Below are positions 10,981-62,390 of a stretch of DNA of 64,000 nucleotides, one piece after another. The notes beneath the pieces are model-generated. The model did not search any database. It was not told the origin of the DNA and worked only from the letters and a program-made list of their open reading frames with translations. Source of the DNA: a virus. The stretch is from IMG/VR virus record IMGVR_UViG_3300012205_000277, positions 27,830 through 91,829 of that record; one strand, written 5' to 3'. A program made the position numbers and the translations under genes. Positions within the stretch are counted from its first letter, which is position 1, and the number at the start of each line of letters is the position of its first letter.

Positions 10981-11175
10981 ATGAAAGAAAAAGGGTGGCT
11001 TGGCCGGGTTATCTGTTTCCTGCATCTGTGCACGCTCGATCAGATCAGATACGACTGGGATCCGTTCATTCAGCACAAGCGGCGGAAATTCGGGATTTGC
11101 TCGCGGTGTTTGCGCAGTAAACGCCTGCCGGCACCTTGGCTTTGCCCGCATTGCCACGCCTTCCACTGGAGATAA
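10981..11175 (+). CDS. Small Cys/His-rich protein
   Basis: Starts directly after the previous stop; CSRC, CPHC. Confidence 0.5.
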   Translation: MKEKGWLGRVICFLHLCTLDQIRYDWDPFIQHKRRKFGICSRCLRSKRLPAPWLCPHCHAFHWR

Positions 11176-11181
11176 TTCGGC

Positions 11182-11211
11182 TTGACAGCGCGGGCGGAGT
11201 TCTGGCAAAGT
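11182..11211 (+). promoter_or_regulatory. Promoter of the Pth / amber-tRNA unit
   Basis: TTGACA at 11182 and TGgCAAAGT extended -10; predicted start is close to ATG 11221, so probably leaderless. Confidence 0.55.
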
Positions 11212-11220
11212 CTTCGCATC

Positions 11221-11658
11221 ATGACCTAGATTCCACAAGAAGAATCTTACGTTTTTTGTTTCATCCGCACTAACCTCCCGACCGAACATCAATTTGTGCA
11301 AGCCCTTCATTCCGTCTATCATCTGGCACAACTCCGCCGCGAAGATGGCACGCCCAACATCGTCCTGATCGGGTTGCCGGATGCGGCGGCGCTCCGGCGC
11401 GCGGAACAGAAGCTGATTGCCGCGAAGATCCCGCATTTTGTTTGGGAAGAGCCGGATTATAATTTTGGGCTTACGAGCATTGCGACGGCGCCGATCCGCG
11501 GCGATGAGCGCAAGGCTTTGGCCAATTATCGAGTTTACAAAGCACCGGTGGTGTCAAGTAGCACGTCGCCCTCTAAAGGTGAAAGTGTCTGCTCAATACA
11601 GACCCGGTGCGCCAATTCCAGTGGGGCAGGCACGGTTGCTAGCGCTGTGCGGGTTTGA
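11221..11658 (+). CDS. Peptidyl-tRNA hydrolase, PTH2/PTRHD1-like, with in-frame TAG at codon 3
   Basis: MT*IPQEESYVFCFIRTNLPTEHQFVQALHS...IVLIGL...IPHFVWEEPDYNFGLTSIATAP...LANYRVYK. The track ORF from 11296 lacks the first beta-strand. Confidence 0.8.
11542..11614 (+). tRNA. Non-canonical tRNA, anticodon CUA (amber suppressor-like)
   Basis: GCACCGG/CCGGTGC-G-CCA acceptor; D stem GTGT/GCAC; TCGCC-CTCTAAA-GGTGA; T arm GTCTG-CTCAATA-CAGAC. Confidence 0.8.
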
Positions 11659-11675
11659 GTACCACTGCCCCACCA
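11623..11675 (+). ncRNA. 53-nt D-armless tRNA-like RNA, loop centred on CUA (or GCU)
   Basis: GGGGCAG/CTGCCCC-A-CCA; GCACGGT-TGCTAGC-GCTGTGC; short GGT-TTGAGT-ACC arm. Confidence 0.6.
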
Positions 11676-11681
11676 GTTTGA

Positions 11682-11756
11682 CCGCGTGTAGCTCAGTGGC
11701 AGAGCAGGGACTTCTAAACTCCTTGGGCGCGAGTTCGATTCTCGCCACGCGGTCCA
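11682..11756 (+). tRNA. tRNA, anticodon CUA (amber suppressor; Arg-UCU reading less likely)
   Basis: CCGCGTG/CACGCGG-T-CCA; GCTC/GAGC D stem; GGGAC-TTCTAAA-CTCCT; canonical GTTCGATTC. Confidence 0.8.
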
Positions 11757-11781
11757 AATGTCAAGTTTCCGGCGCAAAAAC

Positions 11782-11809
11782 TTGACATTTAGAAACGGAA
11801 TCTTATACT
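11782..11809 (+). promoter_or_regulatory. Sigma70-type promoter
   Basis: TTGACA-16 nt-TATACT. Confidence 0.75.
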
Positions 11810-11858
11810 CTTCGACGGAACTACCTGCGGAAGAATCCGCATCGAAAAGGAGAACCTG

Positions 11859-12965
11859 ATGCCAAACCTCGAGCTATCCGTCAATTCCATTTGTAAAATC
11901 GTTTCCGAAGAAAAATACGGTTTCAAATTCGGCAAGCCCGATCGTCCGTCGGCCGAATCGTTGTCTTGCATCCTCCCGATCCTGCGCAAGACGGCGCAAG
12001 TCCGCCAATACGTGACGTATCCGGAAAGCGATCAAGTCCTCGTCCACGACTCCGGCAGCATCAACAAAGTCAACCTGCTCAATTCCTCGAAAGAAAATGT
12101 TTTCGTCCGCAGCGGAACGATTTTCGAGGGCAAAGGCACGCAAAGCCGCGCGTTGACGCGCAGTGCGGTGCTCTTTCCCGGCCAGGCGGTGGCGCTCGAT
12201 GTGCGCTGCGTGCATGCCTCGCACGGGATCCGCAGCGGGTCGGCATTCGTTTACGGCGGGATCACCCCGCTGAGCGTCGATACGGCTTTCTATCGTTCCG
12301 GGTACACTCCGGGCGATCAGCACACCATGTGGAATACGGTAACGGCCAGCACCACTTCGATGAGCGGCATGTCGGCTGGCGAGGTCCCCGAACCGGTCCG
12401 CGGCAGCTTTGAAAAATGGGCTGGCGCCCCAAGGCGCGGAAGCCGTCGCAGCCTCATGGCTTCCGGCGGAAGCGTCGTCCAGGACTTCGGCAGAGCCGTC
12501 ATTGGCGAAGCCGGCCATGAAACGTACCTGCCCAACGCTGACAACCTCAAAGAGAACTTCGATGCGTTCGCCAAGAACTTTGACGAGATCCTGTCGAAAG
12601 CGCGGCTGCATGACAACCAGGTCGGTCTCGGGCTGATTACCGACAAAGGATGCAAAACCGTTGAACTTTTTGATATAGGCAAATCCTGGGAAGCGGTCCA
12701 CAAGGATTCTGTAAAACGCGTGGGCGCAGAATTGCTTCGCGGCGAGGACAAAACGAATGTGTTCGAATACAAGCCGGAGCATGCGGTCAATGCGGTTCGC
12801 GCGGTCCTTGGATTGCCGTTCAAAACCAACCTGATCTACCAACATAAGCCGTCGAACGGCGAGCCGCCGGTATCGATCTTTGGATTGACGGCCGAGCGCT
12901 TCGTCGGCGAAGTGGTCGAGTTGGATTCGCGAGTGATCCACCTGGTCATTATTGAGACGGTGTAA
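11859..12965 (+). CDS. ARPP-1 / DUF6569-like protein
   Basis: DSGSINKVNLLNSSKENVFVRSGTIFEGKGTQSR..VRCVH pattern; AAGGAG RBS. Confidence 0.7.
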   Translation: MPNLELSVNSICKIVSEEKYGFKFGKPDRPSAESLSCILPILRKTAQVRQYVTYPESDQVLVHDSGSINKVNLLNSSKENVFVRSGTIFEGKGTQSRALTRSAVLFPGQAVALDVRCVHASHGIRSGSAFVYGGITPLSVDTAFYRSGYTPGDQHTMWNTVTASTTSMSGMSAGEVPEPVRGSFEKWAGAPRRGSRRSLMASGGSVVQDFGRAVIGEAGHETYLPNADNLKENFDAFAKNFDEILSKARLHDNQVGLGLITDKGCKTVELFDIGKSWEAVHKDSVKRVGAELLRGEDKTNVFEYKPEHAVNAVRAVLGLPFKTNLIYQHKPSNGEPPVSIFGLTAERFVGEVVELDSRVIHLVIIETV

Positions 12966-27329: not shown

Positions 27330-28010
27330 TTACTGCGCTTCGACAAGCAAGCCGTAGTAATCGACTCTTCCTAGATTGATAACATAGCCTCTGGTAATAT
27401 GGGCCGTCGGGCACGGCATCGTCAGAAGACATTTGTCCGCGTAATCAAATACTTCTTTCTTTCCGGGAACATTCCAACTCTCAGGGATACCCATCACCCG
27501 CTTTGCCAACTTGCTGATCGGCATCTTGCCGCTTCCGGGTCCGTGTTGGCCATAAGATACAGTCCCGCGCGTCAAAAATACAACTGTGCGTTGCTTGATC
27601 CGGAATAGCAATTCATGCCAGATCTCCCATGGATCGCCGTAACAGTCCACGTCCACCGTGTTATACCTACCCAAGCCTGTGCCGGTGTATTCATCGACTT
27701 TCGTATCGCCATTCAAGGCCGCGATAAAGCGCGGCGTGATTTTAATTTGGAGCTGGCCGGCTTGCTTCGCGACTGCATCGACCGGCGTATACGTTTGGAC
27801 TTGCAAGGCCCGCGGCTGATCCTCGGGAGATAAGTCCGGATCGTAGCGCGGCTGGCGCCGGAGCTCCGACCAAACCATTCCCTCCCCGGCAAATAAATCA
27901 AGGACACGCAGCGGTTCCATCTGGGCTTCCTCAATCAGGAACCTTCGTAGGTAAACTTTATCGGCTAAAGAACGATTGTCGGTTTTTTTCTGCAGCGCCG
28001 AAGCACTCAT
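27330..28010 (-). CDS. SAM-dependent methyltransferase-like protein
   Basis: VLDLFAGEG motif I; VDVDCYGDPW motif IV-like. Confidence 0.7.
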   Translation of the reverse strand: MSASALQKKTDNRSLADKVYLRRFLIEEAQMEPLRVLDLFAGEGMVWSELRRQPRYDPDLSPEDQPRALQVQTYTPVDAVAKQAGQLQIKITPRFIAALNGDTKVDEYTGTGLGRYNTVDVDCYGDPWEIWHELLFRIKQRTVVFLTRGTVSYGQHGPGSGKMPISKLAKRVMGIPESWNVPGKKEVFDYADKCLLTMPCPTAHITRGYVINLGRVDYYGLLVEAQ

Positions 28011-53785: not shown

Positions 53786-53871
53786 TGGAGGAGGATGGAA
53801 GAATCGAACTTCCGTGCTTTCACACGCCCTGGGTTTCGAGTCCAGTTGCGGGCCGTTCCGCAGCACCCTCC
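53786..53871 (-). tRNA. tRNA-Ser(CGA)
   Basis: Cloverleaf, long variable arm, loop CTCGAAA, CCA. Confidence 0.85.
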
Positions 53872-53921
53872 GATGGAGAGTGCGATGATGATCCGCGTGT
53901 CATGACTTGATTATAACAGAT

Positions 53922-54008
53922 TGGCGGAGACGGAGAGACTTGAACTCTCACAACCTTGCGGTCGCCGGTTTAGCAAACCGGTGCGTTTACCAATTCCGCC
54001 ACGTCTCC
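53922..54008 (-). tRNA. tRNA-Ser(GCT)
   Basis: Loop TTGCTAA, long variable arm, CCA. Confidence 0.92.
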
Positions 54009-54015
54009 TCCAACT

Positions 54016-54094
54016 TGGTCGGTCCGGTTGGATTTGAACCAACGACCTACGGTTTATGAGACCGTTGCTCTAAACCGGTCTGAGCTACGGACCG
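54016..54094 (-). tRNA. tRNA-Met or Ile2 (CAT)
   Basis: Loop CTCATAA, CCA. Confidence 0.9.
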
Positions 54095-54098
54095 AAAC

Positions 54099-54177
54099 TG
54101 GTGGGTGCGGTGAGATTTGAACTCACAGCCTTCTCCTTAAGAGGGAGCTGCTCTGCGCAATTAGGAGCTACGCACCC
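54099..54177 (-). tRNA. tRNA-Lys(CTT)
   Basis: Loop CTCTTAA, CCA. Confidence 0.88.
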
Positions 54178-54182
54178 AAATC

Positions 54183-54272
54183 TGGTGGGGAAGGCCGGAA
54201 TCGAACCGGCATAGCCGCCAGGGCTAGCAGTTTTACAGACTGCCGAGCTCAGCCAATTCGCTCATCTTCCCC
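54183..54272 (-). tRNA. tRNA-Tyr(GTA)
   Basis: Loop CTGTAAA, long variable arm, CCA. Confidence 0.9.
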
Positions 54273-54403
54273 GAAACTTTTCACAGTCACGCGAATCGTA
54301 CTTCCGAATTGCTTGCGCTCAGCTTTCCGGTTGGCACGCTTACGCGCCGCAATTTCTTTTCTGATTTCTATCTTGCTCTGCGTCTTCATATCACCACCAA
54401 TCT

Positions 54404-54479
54404 TAGCGGCCCTGGCAGGATTCGAACCCGCATATCTTGATTAGAACTCAAGACCGTTATCCGTTACGGTAACAGGGCC
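54404..54479 (-). tRNA. tRNA-Arg(TCT)
   Basis: CTTGA-GTTCTAA-TCAAG; 3' end is CTA rather than CCA. Confidence 0.85.
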
Positions 54480-54489
54480 ACAAAGCTTT

Positions 54490-54564
54490 TGGTCCCGCTT
54501 CGCGGAATCGAACCGCGGTCACTGGCTTTTCAGACCAGGGCTGCTTCCACTGAGCTAAAGCGGG
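54490..54564 (-). tRNA. tRNA-Phe(GAA)
   Basis: Loop CTGAAAA, CCA. Confidence 0.88.
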
Positions 54565-54574
54565 CCGTAAATTG

Positions 54575-54674
54575 TTCTAGGAGTGCCTAAGCCTTGTCCG
54601 CTGCGCTATTGGTTCGGACGCATATGCCTCACCATCCTAGCTGGTCAGCCACGCGCTACCCACCACTCCTAGAA
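54575..54674 (-). ncRNA. Non-tRNA structured RNA candidate inside the tRNA array
   Basis: 11-bp terminal stem TTCTAGGAGTG/CACTCCTAGAA with internal hairpins; no cloverleaf or CCA. Confidence 0.5.
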
Positions 54675-54676
54675 AC

Positions 54677-54753
54677 TGGCGGACCTGATGGGTTTCGAAC
54701 CCACGATCTCCACATAGACAGTGTGGCGAGGACAGCCGCTCCTCTACAGGTCC
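54677..54753 (-). tRNA. tRNA-Asp(GTC)
   Basis: CCACA-CTGTCTA-TGTGG, CCA. Confidence 0.9.
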
Positions 54754-54757
54754 AAAC

Positions 54758-54833
54758 TGGCTGGGGCGGAAGGACTCGAACCTTCAAATACCGCGTTAAC
54801 GGCGCGGCCCTGTACCGATTGAGGCACACCCCA
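54758..54833 (-). tRNA. tRNA-Asn(GTT)
   Basis: CCGCG-CCGTTAA-CGCGG, CCA. Confidence 0.88.
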
Positions 54834-55167
54834 AAACTTTTATCAATTCCGGATGATGTTCTTCTGCATGACAATTCAAACAAAGGAGCTCACACTTCTT
54901 AAGCTCCTTTTCAATCTTCGCCCAAGCCAAAATATGGCCACCGCCAACACCAAAAGATTTCTCTCCGGGATGATGGAAAATTAAAGCAGCAAAGCATTTG
55001 TCATATCCGCATCGTTGACATTTTCCACCAAGGAATTCAACGGCTTTTTGTTTCGTCCGCCGCCTCCATTCAGTAACGTAAAATATGGTGCCATGTCCTC
55101 TACAGCAAAATCTATTGTTCGCTCTTTTTCCGGATAGCTCCTTATCGCACCATTCACATTTTTTCAT
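54796..55167 (-). CDS. HNH endonuclease in the tRNA array
   Basis: LGGKCQRCGY..ALIFHH..ELKKCELLCLNCHAEEH. Confidence 0.85.
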   Translation of the reverse strand: MKKCEWCDKELSGKRANNRFCCRGHGTIFYVTEWRRRTKQKAVEFLGGKCQRCGYDKCFAALIFHHPGEKSFGVGGGHILAWAKIEKELKKCELLCLNCHAEEHHPELIKVLGCASIGTGPRR

Positions 55168-55198
55168 GGCGGCATATATTAACACATGCCGTTAATTC

Positions 55199-55282
55199 TG
55201 GTGCGCGCGAAAGGATTTGAACCTCCACGCCCGAAGGCGCTGCGTCCTAAGCGCAGTGCGTCTGCCGTTCCGCCACGCGCGC
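55199..55282 (-). tRNA. tRNA-Leu(TAG)
   Basis: CTGCG-CTTAGGA-CGCAG, variable arm, CCA. Confidence 0.92.
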
Positions 55283-55494
55283 AATCTTTTTTATGCGACT
55301 TCGCTTTGCCTTGCCGCCGCTTGCTCGTCAAATCGTTCGTCCAGGGCTCTTGTTTCTTTCCGGAATCGGCTCACGCATTTATAACAGAACCAACCGAGCG
55401 TTGTGAGTATTCCGTTGCCTGGCAATCTGTCTGTCCTGCAAAGTTTACATTTTTTAGCCGGCATCGTTCCTCAATTCTGGCCTGGGCCTATTCT

Positions 55495-55569
55495 TGGTAC
55501 CCAGCTAAGGACTCGAACCCTAATCCCTTCGGTGTAGGCGAAGTATCCTGACCGTTAGACGAGCCGGGC
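55495..55569 (-). tRNA. tRNA-Val(TAC)
   Basis: CTTCG-CCTACAC-CGAAG, CCA. Confidence 0.85.
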
Positions 55570-55576
55570 ACAAACT

Positions 55577-55771
55577 CTATTTAAAATTGGCGATGCGGTC
55601 AGTAAGGATTTTCGCATATTCACCCATCACCGCGTGCTGACGCGTCAATCTCGCGTGTTCCTCAACATCAAGAGATTTGAATGTGGCTCCCTGGAGGAAC
55701 ACGCCAAGCTTAGCGTGCTTCTCGGTCAATTCATTCAATTCCGTTACGACCCGTTCTTGATGTGGCTGCAT
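55577..55771 (-). CDS. crAss001_48-like helical-hairpin protein, candidate immune-signal sponge
   Basis: MQPHQERVVTELNEL..KL..F...RLTRQHAVMGEYAKILTDRI; AAGGAG RBS. Confidence 0.75.
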   Translation of the reverse strand: MQPHQERVVTELNELTEKHAKLGVFLQGATFKSLDVEEHARLTRQHAVMGEYAKILTDRIANFK

Positions 55772-55789
55772 ACTTTCTCCTTCAAAATC

Positions 55790-55867
55790 TGGTGAGGGCG
55801 AGAGGACTTGAACCTCCATATCATTCACGTTCGTAGCGTGAGCCGTTATCCATTACGGGACGCCCTC
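55790..55867 (-). tRNA. tRNA-Arg(ACG)
   Basis: TCACG-CTACGAA-CGTGA, CCA. Confidence 0.88.
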
Positions 55868-56076
55868 AGAAAACTTTTTTGTCCGCTTCAAATACATATC
55901 ATAAAACTTTGCCGCCGTTGGTCCATGCCAACCGATGGCATCGCCTATTTCATTCCAAGTTTTGCCCTCTGCGAGCATCCGTTCCACGGTCGGAATATGT
56001 CCTTGTTGCTCAAGGCCGAATTGAATCTGTACTCCATCAAAAACCTTGAGCAAACTCTTCAACGATTCTTTCATCC

Positions 56077-56152
56077 TGGTGGTCCCGCGCGGATTCGAAC
56101 CGCGATCGCCAGTTCCGGAAACTGGTGTCCTGTCCGGTTGGACGACGGAACC
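56077..56152 (-). tRNA. tRNA-Arg(CCG)
   Basis: CCAGT-TTCCGGA-ACTGG, CCA. Confidence 0.9.
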
Positions 56153-56260
56153 AAACTCTTAGAATATCTTGCTGGCTAAAACCAGCAGACATTCGAGCGC
56201 AATGCCAACTGCTGCGATGTACCAATAGATGTTGGCGCTACGCCATCTACTCATAAACTT

Positions 56261-56346
56261 TGGTGCGCGGTAAGAGACTCGAACTCTTACGGGTCATGCC
56301 CAACAGATTTTAAGTCTGTCGCGTCTACCACTTCCGCCAACCGCGC
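56261..56346 (-). tRNA. tRNA-Leu(TAA)
   Basis: ACAGA-CTTAAAA-TCTGT, variable arm, CCA. Confidence 0.92.
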
Positions 56347-56350
56347 ATTC

Positions 56351-56436
56351 TGGTGCCGGAGGAGAGATTCCCACTCTCACGCCGCTAAGGCGTCCGCTTT
56401 TGAAGCGGATGCGTCTGGTAGTTCCGCCACTCCGGC
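56351..56436 (-). tRNA. tRNA-Leu(CAA)
   Basis: TCCGC-TTCAAAA-GCGGA; atypical T loop TGGGAAT; CCA. Confidence 0.82.
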
Positions 56437-56910
56437 AAATCTGTTTTTAATGCCAAAATTATCCGTCTGTGAATGACAGTTCGGACATGCAAATCGTAAA
56501 TTTTCGGGACGGTCATCCCATTTCCATCCGTTCTTATGGTCAACATGGAGCGTCAATGGCTTGTTGTTCCAAACTGGAAGTTGACCACAAATTTCACATT
56601 TATATTCTCGTCCACTATCCCTCAGTGCGCGTCTTCGTCGCGGTGCTCGTACGGGCTCAGCATTTTGGTCATGTAATATCAAAATTTCTTGCCAAGGTTG
56701 TTTTGGAGAACCACCTTTATATCTCAGCCCGCAATTGGCGGCTTGTCCTAAAAAATGAGTTGTGTCAATTTCCAGTCGCGCGATGCGTCGTTTTAGATAT
56801 AAGTATGAACCGCCAGCAATTCGTAGACCAAGCCGAACCATAACCTGTGCCATTGACGTACTCGGTTTTACGGCATCTTGAAGCATTTCCTTACTGTATT
56901 TTGAATGCAT
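56377..56910 (-). CDS. HNH endonuclease in the tRNA array
   Basis: YKCEICG..WNNKPLTLHVDHKNG..DDRPENLRFACPNCHSQT. Confidence 0.92.
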   Translation of the reverse strand: MHSKYSKEMLQDAVKPSTSMAQVMVRLGLRIAGGSYLYLKRRIARLEIDTTHFLGQAANCGLRYKGGSPKQPWQEILILHDQNAEPVRAPRRRRALRDSGREYKCEICGQLPVWNNKPLTLHVDHKNGWKWDDRPENLRFACPNCHSQTDNFGIKNRFAGVAELPDASASKADALAA

Positions 56911-56944
56911 TTTAAATCTCCATTCCGTCAAGGGCCCGAACTCT

Positions 56945-57020
56945 TGGTGGGCGGAGTTGGTCTCGAACCAACCGCCGCAGCCTTATCAAGACTGTGCTCT
57001 ACCTGATGAGCTATCCGCCC
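56945..57020 (-). tRNA. tRNA-Ile(GAT)
   Basis: Loop TTGATAA, CCA. Confidence 0.9.
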
Positions 57021-57031
57021 ACAAAATCTTT

Positions 57032-57106
57032 TGGCAGGCCCGGAGAGACTCGAACTCTCGTTAACGGGTTTGGAGGCCGTTGTCCTAGCCGCTAGACGAC
57101 AGACCT
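57032..57106 (-). tRNA. tRNA-Trp(CCA)
   Basis: Loop CTCCAAA, CCA. Confidence 0.88.
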
Positions 57107-57113
57107 GCCGAAC

Positions 57114-57187
57114 TGGAGCGGACGCGGAGGATCGAACTCCGTTGTTCACCTTGGAAGAGTGATACCCAACCAATGGGCCACGCCCGC
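57114..57187 (-). tRNA. tRNA-Gly(TCC)
   Basis: GCGGGCG acceptor, loop CTTCCAA, TCCA end. Confidence 0.88.
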
Positions 57188-57191
57188 AAAC

Positions 57192-57265
57192 TGGAGCGGA
57201 TGAGCGGAATCGAACCGCTGTACCGAGAATGGCGTTCTCGGGTCTTTCCACTAGACGACACCCGC
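57192..57265 (-). tRNA. tRNA-Gly(GCC)
   Basis: CGAGA-ACGCCAT-TCTCG, TCCA end. Confidence 0.85.
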
Positions 57266-57329
57266 CAAGATCTTCACCGGATTGCCGCTGTCGCGCCTCC
57301 TTAACGCCGCCGATCCGGTTACTGCAACT

Positions 57330-57404
57330 TGGGGCCGAGTGAGAGATTCGAACTCCCGACGCGCAGTTTACAGAACTGCCGTTCTACCGCTGAACTAACC
57401 CGGC
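57330..57404 (-). tRNA. tRNA-Thr(TGT)
   Basis: GCAGT-TCTGTAA-ACTGC, CCA. Confidence 0.82.
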
Positions 57405-57410
57405 GAAATT

Positions 57411-57487
57411 TGGGGCCAGGAGAGAGAGTCGAACTCTCGTCTTCGCATTACCAATGCGATGCTCTAAACCGACTGAGCTATCCCGGC
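57411..57487 (-). tRNA. tRNA-Thr(GGT)
   Basis: TCGCA-TTGGTAA-TGCGA, CCA. Confidence 0.92.
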
Positions 57488-57672
57488 AAACTAGTACGGC
57501 CCTATGCTGCCAGCAGCTACTCTGCCGGCAACCGGCTCGCGCTCCTCGATCCAGAGCAGGATATCGCCAAGAACAGCAAGCAACATCTTCTCGCGCTCCG
57601 GTCCCGCTGGCAGATCGTGGATCCGATTGTATTTCTCCCGGATGTCTTTTGCCGTCATGGTTGCCTCCAATT

Positions 57673-57747
57673 TGGAGCTGGCTCGCGGACTCGAACCGCG
57701 GTCCTGGCGTTACGAGTGCCGAACTCTGCCCGTTGAGCTAAGCCAGC
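57673..57747 (-). tRNA. tRNA-Thr(CGT)
   Basis: Loop CTCGTAA, CCA. Confidence 0.85.
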
Positions 57748-57757
57748 AAAAAACTTT

Positions 57758-57833
57758 TGGTTCCCCGGGTTGGCCTCGAACCAACATTTCAAGATCCAGA
57801 ATCTCGCGTCCTGCCTACTTGAACGACCGGGGA
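57758..57833 (-). tRNA. tRNA-Gln(CTG)
   Basis: Loop TTCTGGA, CCA. Confidence 0.88.
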
Positions 57834-57846
57834 AGTGACGCAAACA

Positions 57847-57920
57847 TGGATGGGAGGCAGGGATTCGAACCCCGATACTGAGATCCAAAATCTCAAGTCC
57901 TGCCGTTGGACGACCTCCCA
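57847..57920 (-). tRNA. tRNA-Gln(TTG)
   Basis: TGAGA-TTTTGGA-TCTCA, CCA. Confidence 0.9.
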
Positions 57921-57925
57921 AAACT

Positions 57926-58001
57926 TGGTGGGACCGGCGAGACTCGAACTCGCGCTAGTCCGCTTAAAAGGCGGATGCTTTACCATCTAAGCTACGGTCC
58001 C
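57926..58001 (-). tRNA. tRNA-Lys(TTT)
   Basis: TCCGC-CTTTTAA-GCGGA, CCA. Confidence 0.92.
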
Positions 58002-58002
58002 G

Positions 58003-58076
58003 TACCCCGAATCAGAATCGAACTGACATCTCAGCCTTGAAAGGGCCGTGTGCTAAACCGTTTGCACCATCGGGGC
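58003..58076 (-). tRNA. tRNA-Glu(TTC)
   Basis: Loop CTTTCAA; no encoded CCA; abuts tRNA-Lys. Confidence 0.88.
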
Positions 58077-58088
58077 ATTGCACAAAAT

Positions 58089-58164
58089 TGGTCGCCGCGG
58101 TGGGATTTTAACCCACGATCCCTTCTACCCGAAAGAAGTGCCTTGAACGCTAGGCCACGCGGCG
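58089..58164 (-). tRNA. tRNA-Pro(CGG)
   Basis: CTTCT-TTCGGGT-AGAAG, CCA. Confidence 0.85.
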
Positions 58165-58168
58165 GAAC

Positions 58169-58245
58169 TGGTGGCATCGGTCGGATTCGAACCGACAATC
58201 TCTTGCTCCCAAAGCAAGCGGGTTGAACCGTTTCCCTACGACGCC
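58169..58245 (-). tRNA. tRNA-Pro(TGG)
   Basis: CTTGC-TTTGGGA-GCAAG, CCA. Confidence 0.88.
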
Positions 58246-58254
58246 AATAAATTT

Positions 58255-58330
58255 TGGGGCGACGGATGAGAGTCGAACTCACTAGAAGATGCTCCACAGG
58301 CATCCGCCTCACCGTTTGGCTTCCGTCACC
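58255..58330 (-). tRNA. tRNA-His(GTG)
   Basis: GATGC-CTGTGGA-GCATC; G-1/C73; CCA. Confidence 0.9.
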
Positions 58331-58368
58331 ACAGAAACTCCATTCCGCTCAACACAACTTTAAAAATC

Positions 58369-58444
58369 TGGTGGACGCGATCGGATTCGAACCGACTGCC
58401 TCGGGGATGCAAAGCCCGCGCTCTCCCAAGTGAGCTACGCGCCC
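58369..58444 (-). tRNA. tRNA-Ala(TGC)
   Basis: G3:U70 pair, loop TTTGCAT, CCA. Confidence 0.92.
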
Positions 58445-62318: not shown

Positions 62319-62390
62319 TTGCGGGGAAGCGAATTGAACGCTTTATCTTTGGGTTATGAGCCCAACGGATTACCGTTTTCCCGCCCCGCA
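62319..62390 (-). tRNA. Initiator-type tRNA-fMet(CAT)
   Basis: TTGGG-CTCATAA-CCCAA (three G-C pairs); TGCGGGG/CCCCGCA acceptor; no encoded CCA. Confidence 0.8.

Follow-up and report, generated by a model that had tools for sequence, protein, structure and literature searches.

A stop-less phage gene with a predicted Pth2 fold that runs into an amber-suppressor tRNA

A phage open reading frame (ORF) of 107 codons with a predicted Pth2 fold was found to end, with no terminator codon of its own, at the first nucleotide of a tRNA gene with the anticodon CUA, and its frame stays open into that tRNA. Comparison of related sequences showed this stop-less layout to be a family trait, inherited across a large and diverse part of the family. 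The ORF lies in the 64,000-nucleotide stretch of DNA analysed here (hereafter the window; positions 27,830 to 91,829 of IMG/VR record IMGVR_UViG_3300012205_000277), which also carries a terminase gene and belongs to a phage record of 91.8 kb that is 60% complete. In bacteria and phages a protein gene should normally close with a stop codon; the known exceptions are a few regulated genes, arfA among them, and the tRNA-bounded mRNAs of organelles. Here a whole lineage of soil-phage genes is stop-less, ends at a tRNA and keeps its frame open into it, and the abutting tRNA is the very suppressor required for reading beyond the gene's third codon. We propose, with an even chance of being right, that a suppressor-tRNA precursor has the Pth2-fold gene as its 5' leader, and that the output of this gene is conditional, short-lived and tied in both directions to the suppressor. 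If this coupling is functional it would be a new link among tRNA maturation, stop-codon suppression and ribosome rescue, and would hint at a role for the 'orphan' suppressor tRNAs and mini-tRNAs of phages. What is new is the conserved absence of the stop, the abutment to RNase P-type substrates, mini-tRNAs included, and the signs that the open frame is under selection.

The Pth2-fold reading frame and its junction with the tRNA

The cassette lies on the plus strand, and all coordinates are those of the window unless a related locus is named. The ORF (11221-11541) runs from ATG at 11221 to its last codon, AAA, at 11539-11541. In the frame from 11221 to 11658 the sole internal stop is a TAG at codon 3 (11227-11229), here called the amber gate, followed by 143 sense codons up to a TGA at 11656-11658. 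The triplets ATG-ACC-TAG were taken as the real start because the fold needs residues encoded 5' of the first code-11 start, and they are kept in L002, a relative 89% identical to the window ORF. An early in-frame TAG was present in 87 of 91 unique related loci and was codon 3 in 66 of 82; glutamine takes its position in homologues P0008, P0018 and P0054. The start was almost always ATG-ACN-TAG-RTY (window 11221-11229 and 82 related loci), with a threonine codon (ACN) second in 51 of the 82 and ATT, GTT or ATC after the TAG. Without suppression such a start is a two-codon minigene, the type that causes peptidyl-tRNA drop-off. General recoding of TAG (code 15) was considered and rejected: PHROG homology never required read-through (in 10 TAG-extended ORFs it stayed within the code-11 ORF, save for a 15-residue overhang in one ParB-like match), and 12 of 49 long ORFs in the window end in TAG.

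The product had been labelled hydrolase-like from its sequence, and this label stood by fold and profile but not by Pfam. An AF2 model of the ORF, built from 56 homologues, had a pLDDT of 95.3, and in a Foldseek search of the PDB its best 11 matches were all Pth2-family structures (probability 1.0, TM 0.69-0.79), with TM 0.75-0.79 to 2zv3, 1wn2, 3erj, 1q7s and 1xty; the best structural matches were MJ0051, PH1539, AF2095, human Bit1 and Sulfolobus Pth2. The family profile matched a solved peptidyl-tRNA hydrolase, PDB 24bt, at E 2e-4. A Pfam search of the ORF gave nothing even at E 10, the gathering score of PF01981 (Pth2) not being reached, and single-sequence phmmer against the PDB gave chance matches only. 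Among PHROGs the ORF matched only PHROG 34073, of unknown function (E 2e-5), and, weakly, one described as 'hydrolase'. Residues R13, D15, H27 and D76 were invariant or near-invariant among the homologues, and the R-x-D-L and Q..HA motifs aligned with solved Pth2 in the family profile. The ORF product is modelled as a Pth2 alpha/beta fold. Compared with the archaeal and eukaryotic Pth2 / PTRH2 (Bit1) proteins, it has the alpha/beta fold and the RxDL...Q..HA motifs of solved Pth2 in common, but is only 12-15% identical, has no PF01981 match and is shorter (about 104 residues).

An exhaustive search gave 617 representative homologues. A dN/dS of 0.21 was obtained for the window ORF against L002, and by this measure the coding region is under purifying selection. 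Residues Y103 and R104 are near-invariant and are encoded 3-4 codons 5' of the tRNA, so close to the junction that a ribosome must decode right up to it.

The tRNA that follows, tRNA1 (11542-11614; anticodon CUA, encoded CCA), was called by ARAGORN and by Rfam (11542-11611, 44.6 bits), and its G1 comes directly after the last ORF codon. A second, canonical tRNA, tRNA2 (11682-11756; anticodon CUA, encoded CCA), was called by ARAGORN and by Rfam (11682-11753, 59.9 bits). Both are predicted cloverleaf tRNAs with an amber-suppressor anticodon. The original prediction had stated that the Pth ORF has no stop of its own, AAA being followed at a codon boundary by G1 of the tRNA, and that the frame continues through the first CUA tRNA to the TGA at 11656-11658 in a second tRNA-like element; the sequence, ARAGORN and Rfam agree on the former, and the sequence and its translation bear out the latter. 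The extension (11542-11658), which passes through tRNA1 into a mini-tRNA-like element, comprises 38 codons and the TGA, and its tail was predicted to be disordered (pLDDT below 50, residues 110-145). The missing stop is not an assembly error, because three other soil runs carry the junction unchanged: contigs of soil metagenome runs X3, X4 and X5, from three different studies, span 11541/11542 with 0 differences.

Two ways of supplying a stop near the junction were examined and rejected. Completion of a stop by polyadenylation does not fit a leader whose last three nucleotides are a whole codon, AAA, with no T or TA. A frameshift would lack a slippery site; in the -1 frame the only stop close by is a TAG six codons further, and the +1 frame is open for 80 codons.

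The second tRNA-like element also proved to be real. It is a D-armless mini-tRNA-like element of 53 nt (11623-11675), with a 7-bp acceptor stem (11623-29 / 11665-71), an A-CCA 3' end, a hairpin with a 7-bp stem and a 7-nt loop that contains CUA (11639-41), and a hairpin with a 3-bp T-like stem and the loop UUGAGU. The TGA that ends the extended ORF (11656-11658) falls in this conserved T-like 6-nt loop. RNAalifold predicted 16 pairs from 10 copies of the element, and 8 of the 16 had compensatory changes. The abutting tRNAs and the NCCA-ended mini-tRNAs are likely RNase P substrates. In the minimum free energy (MFE) fold tRNA1, the mini-tRNA and tRNA2 form separate acceptor-stem units.

Elements of the mini-tRNA family are 50-60 nt long and D-armless, with a 7-8-bp acceptor stem, two hairpins and an NCCA end; CUA occupies a 7-nt loop in some, others have a tetraloop, and at times two stand in tandem. 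They were found just 3' of the ORF in L018, L055, L056, L060, L067, L069, L074 and L075, and likewise in L078, L082, L084, L085 and L093. The MFE fold of the window also paired UUGGC in the last ORF codons (11518-11522) with GCCAA at the CCA end of tRNA1 (11611-11615), a leader-trailer helix that stacks beneath the acceptor stem of tRNA1.

A -35-like box, TTGACA (11182-11187), is a consensus match 39 nt 5' of the ATG, and no Shine-Dalgarno sequence lies between the two, as in a leaderless-type start. A strict promoter scan omits this box, the -10 of which is weak. The box is present in L002 as well, and a TTGACA-like box occurs 32-44 nt (mostly 34-41) 5' of the ATG in 44 of 82 loci, most of them stop-less; in the own-stop clade GGAGG stands in its place. 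Judged from sequence, the TTGACA-ATG spacing in the stop-less clade is that of a leaderless mRNA. The consensus promoter scan found no sigma-70-type promoter-like site from the ORF start to the tRNAs. A strong promoter-like site (11782-11809; TTGACA-16 nt-TATACT, by consensus match) was assigned to the next gene, ARPP-1, and to the end of the unit. The simplest reading is one transcript that would carry AUG-ACC-UAG, the Pth2-fold ORF, tRNA1(CUA), the mini-tRNA and tRNA2(CUA). The gene downstream of the cassette (11859-12965) encodes an ARPP-1 domain protein (Pfam PF20208, E 5e-16), and the upstream flank holds a conserved ORF of 64 residues that is Cys-rich and zinc-ribbon-like (10981-11175).

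Distribution of the layout and stop content of the frame

The layout was compared in 120 related loci, which came from metagenomes of soil and peat, from contigs of viruses and from two MAG contigs of Candidatus Angelobacter. A tRNA begins -3 to +9 nt from the last fold codon in 25 unique loci, and 22 of these tRNAs have CUA as their anticodon; in about 18 more the ORF end adjoins a mini-tRNA-like element of 50-60 nt with an NCCA end. The gap between ORF end and tRNA is 0 nt in the window and commonly -3, 0 or +3 elsewhere, and the overall range of -4 to +9 nt holds across lineages that are only 44-60% identical in amino acid sequence. The junction is in phase 0, at a codon boundary between sense codons, in 19 of the 25 tRNA loci, a bias on which no argument was built because the independent events are too few. 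The tails of database proteins of the family read as translated tRNA genes, and only about 14 of 152 end within 3 residues of the fold. Gene callers thus mis-annotate stop-less loci, and more than 100 database proteins of the Pth2-like family carry tails that are translated tRNA genes.

In the domain tree the stop-less state occupied 49 of the 54 rows of one large, diverse part, and own stops were found in a 32-row clade and a 4-row outgroup. That homologues would likewise lack a stop before the tRNA was one way in which the original prediction could be checked, and about 50 loci in the same part of the tree have none before their tRNA or mini-tRNA. Three lineages of cultured jumbo phages, RsoM2USA, CBB and ME3, were checked among 25 INPHARED matches; they have the early TAG and their own stops, and the stop-less layout was found in 0 of these 3. 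Since distant members have their own stops, the stop-less state was added in one part of the family, which as a whole does not require it; the trait is not essential to the Pth2-like protein, which works with its own stop in distant relatives, cultured phages included.

The stop content of the frame past the fold pointed to selection. Outside the own-stop clades, the ORF frame of 50 of 51 unique loci stayed free of stops over the 18 codons that follow the fold, and over the same stretch a stop occurred in 27 and 34 of the 51 in the remaining two frames; the depletion is less significant than such raw counts would imply, because the loci are related by descent. When the junctions (60 nt) were clustered at 70% identity, a stop was found in the ORF frame of 1 of 26 clusters, as against 13 and 19 of 26 in the other frames. 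Within the own-stop clades all three frames were alike in stop content. The ORF frame is open through the abutting tRNA in 24 of 25 loci, the lone exception being a TAG, and the other frames have a stop inside the abutting tRNA in 36 of 50 cases. Close relatives (81-93% amino acid identity) have identical flanks and different tRNAs directly after the ORF, and all remain in frame to the same TGA (L003, L041, L044), with tails of 38, 38, 39 and 69 codons. This pattern is hard to reconcile with neutral drift. The layout is inherited and the first RNA element leaves the ORF frame open throughout, which suggests selection against ordinary termination where the fold ends. The frame is also kept clear of stops over at least 18 codons of the RNA element, from which it would seem that reading of unprocessed transcripts on into the tRNA matters as well.

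The same data bear on the plainest alternative, a tolerated accident of compaction in which a single deletion removed spacer and stop, the disordered tail was harmless and the state was merely inherited. The stop-less loci fall in one part of the tree and could go back to a single origin or a few; the tail shows no sequence conservation and no structure, and relatives with own stops exist. Neutrality, however, predicts the stop rate of the other frames (53-67% in 18 codons), where 1 in 51 loci, or 1 in 26 junction clusters, was seen. Swaps of the tRNA and 3-nt junction indels among relatives preserve the frame, and abutment is held to within -4 to +9 nt at only 44-60% amino acid identity. We regard an accident of this kind as very unlikely, and it is the reading least consistent with the stop depletion.

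A natural deletion variant was observed in L043, L097 and protein P0003 (two or three contigs; relative to the window, about 11524-12075). In it a CAATT microhomology joins codon ~101 of the Pth2-like gene to the +1 frame of the ARPP-1 gene, with loss of all three CUA RNAs and of the ARPP-1 promoter and start.

Leader processing and read-through of the tRNA

RNase P cuts tRNA precursors at position +1. The ORF runs without a terminator into the +1 position of a predicted RNase P substrate, a tRNA(CUA) here and an NCCA mini-tRNA in some relatives, and a cut at +1 would give a leader whose 3' end coincides with that of the last fold codon. We infer co-transcription of the cassette and its cleavage by RNase P from this arrangement. 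Since a ribosome decoding Y103-K107 covers the 5' acceptor strand of tRNA1, decoding of the last conserved codons and folding or cleavage of the tRNA would be mutually exclusive on one RNA molecule. If RNase P came first, the leader would become a non-stop mRNA on which the complete 107-residue chain would stall, its fate then falling to tmRNA, Arf-type release or drop-off. Should the ribosome come first, it would read 38 extra codons through tRNA1 to the UGA in the mini-tRNA loop, melting tRNA1 and the mini-tRNA on its way and making a protein with a disordered tail. A ribosome melts a tRNA only briefly, so that the effect on tRNA yield may be small. The likely purpose would be to keep the Pth2-like protein conditional and short-lived, and tied in both directions to the suppressor tRNA, without which codon 3 would not be passed and which would come from that one transcript.

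The original prediction favoured a gate set by tmRNA. In its pure form RNase P cleavage would be fast, nearly all translation would end on the non-stop leader and tmRNA would tag the product, so that stable, untagged Pth2-like protein would appear only if trans-translation were saturated or blocked, for example by suppressor read-through of host genes. Such a gate finds backing in the RNase P substrate without a preceding stop, present in the window and in about 50 related loci, and in the position of the fold end exactly at the predicted cleavage site, where stop-independent release would yield a clean 107-residue protein. The arfA gene is a precedent for a regulatory non-stop transcript (PMC10107115, PMC8012679), and loading of the SsrA system by suppressor tRNAs has been reported (Ueda 2002, as cited in PMC8012679). 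The gate alone, however, leaves the open frame of at least 18 codons inside the RNA element unexplained and needs the assumption that the long tail is a degron. Against it also stands the record itself: no tmRNA above the cut-off and no gene for an RF-1/ArfB-type domain was found in its 91.8 kb (60% complete), so that rescue would all be the host's. The gate is compatible with the anatomy of the cassette and may be seen as one version of the proposed suppressor-precursor leader, but taken alone it seems an unlikely account.

A second version is a feedback on the suppressor tRNA itself. When tRNA(CUA) is scarce, ribosomes would stop at the UAG of codon 3, the leader would be bare and tRNA1 would mature; when it is ample, ribosomes would enter tRNA1 and the mini-tRNA, delaying or diverting their processing, and the level of a potentially harmful suppressor would limit itself. 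The amber codon 3 co-occurs with an abutting CUA tRNA (22 of 25 abutting tRNAs are CUA), and selection keeps the whole of the first RNA element open to ribosomes. TAG is still the ordinary stop of roughly a quarter of the long ORFs of the window (12 of 49), and unchecked suppression would therefore have a cost. The melting by ribosomes is transient, though, and the tRNA can refold and then be processed; tRNA2 lies outside the ORF; and some loci adjoin a non-CUA tRNA or a mini-tRNA without an anticodon-like loop. Feedback of this sort is a tentative suggestion, and we doubt that it is correct.

The proposed suppressor-precursor leader could be extended further, to a self-contained translation sensor. 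The suppressor would license ribosomes past the UAG of codon 3 into its own precursor, where normal termination is barred, and only a release that needs no stop codon, at the RNase P-cut end, would yield a clean, stable Pth2-like enzyme. That enzyme would both report and answer the state of ribosome rescue and the peptidyl-tRNA load that the suppressor brings about, and ribosome traffic would feed back on the maturation of tRNA and mini-tRNA. This fuller scheme is speculative and on balance improbable.

Known systems and other RNA genes

The layout recalls several known arrangements, the nearest of them mitochondrial, with secG-leuU and arfA the closest in bacteria, and in a search of the literature no paper was found on a Pth2-like gene joined to a suppressor tRNA. 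In plant mitochondria, stop-less mRNAs of ccmC and nad6 are reported to be defined by t-elements (PMC1920247; Raczynska 2006, as cited there; PMC12214727). [quoted passage not shown] The phage setting differs in that it is bacterial, where tmRNA and Arf rescue exist, and in that the leader has no partial T or TA stop and ends in a complete AAA codon. Unlike its mitochondrial counterparts, the phage frame is kept open into the tRNA, and that tRNA is the suppressor needed by the same ORF.

The arfA gene of E. coli is cleaved by RNase III to give a non-stop mRNA, and tmRNA tagging represses its product (PMC10107115, PMC8012679). In both cases an endonucleolytic cut would leave a stop-less coding RNA, the amount of product would depend on ribosome rescue, and the product has a connection with peptidyl-tRNA or ribosome rescue. 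The predicted nuclease here is RNase P at a tRNA, whereas that of arfA is RNase III at a hairpin, and the two proteins are related neither in sequence nor in fold. For arfA the tagging by tmRNA is known; for the phage gene it would be a prediction.

In secG-leuU of E. coli a co-transcript is separated by RNase P (PMC2241853, PMC7049720). [quoted passage not shown] Being an ordinary annotated gene, secG should carry a stop codon of its own, with a spacer separating it from the tRNA. The phage ORF, by comparison, has neither. Suppressor tRNAs of phages have also been described with recoding of TAG under code 15 (10.1101/2021.08.26.457843, PMC9523058), and theta ribozymes process suppressor tRNAs of phages (PMC10879173). 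As in those phages, a tRNA(CUA) here has an adjacent cis element that could control its maturation; this phage, however, is not generally recoded, and the cis element is a translated ORF and not a ribozyme.

Other RNA genes were noted in the window and in the related loci. On the minus strand of the window lie a 30-gene tRNA array that serves most amino acids (53786-58444) and one further tRNA-Met gene (62319-62390). Odd tRNAs were seen in the cassettes of L002 (3304-3381 and 3536-3635), L007, L013, L015, L017 and L024; some have insertions of 11-28 nt in the D-loop region, and one, of about 100 nt, has a duplicated segment of the anticodon arm. ARAGORN also called tRNAs with four-base anticodons (ccta, tcta, taaa, aata, ttta) beside CUA tRNAs. 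In L022 it called a phage-borne tmRNA (444-766) with the tag peptide VTAPKAMAMAAAA, about 0.7 kb 5' of a Pth2-like member that has its own stop.
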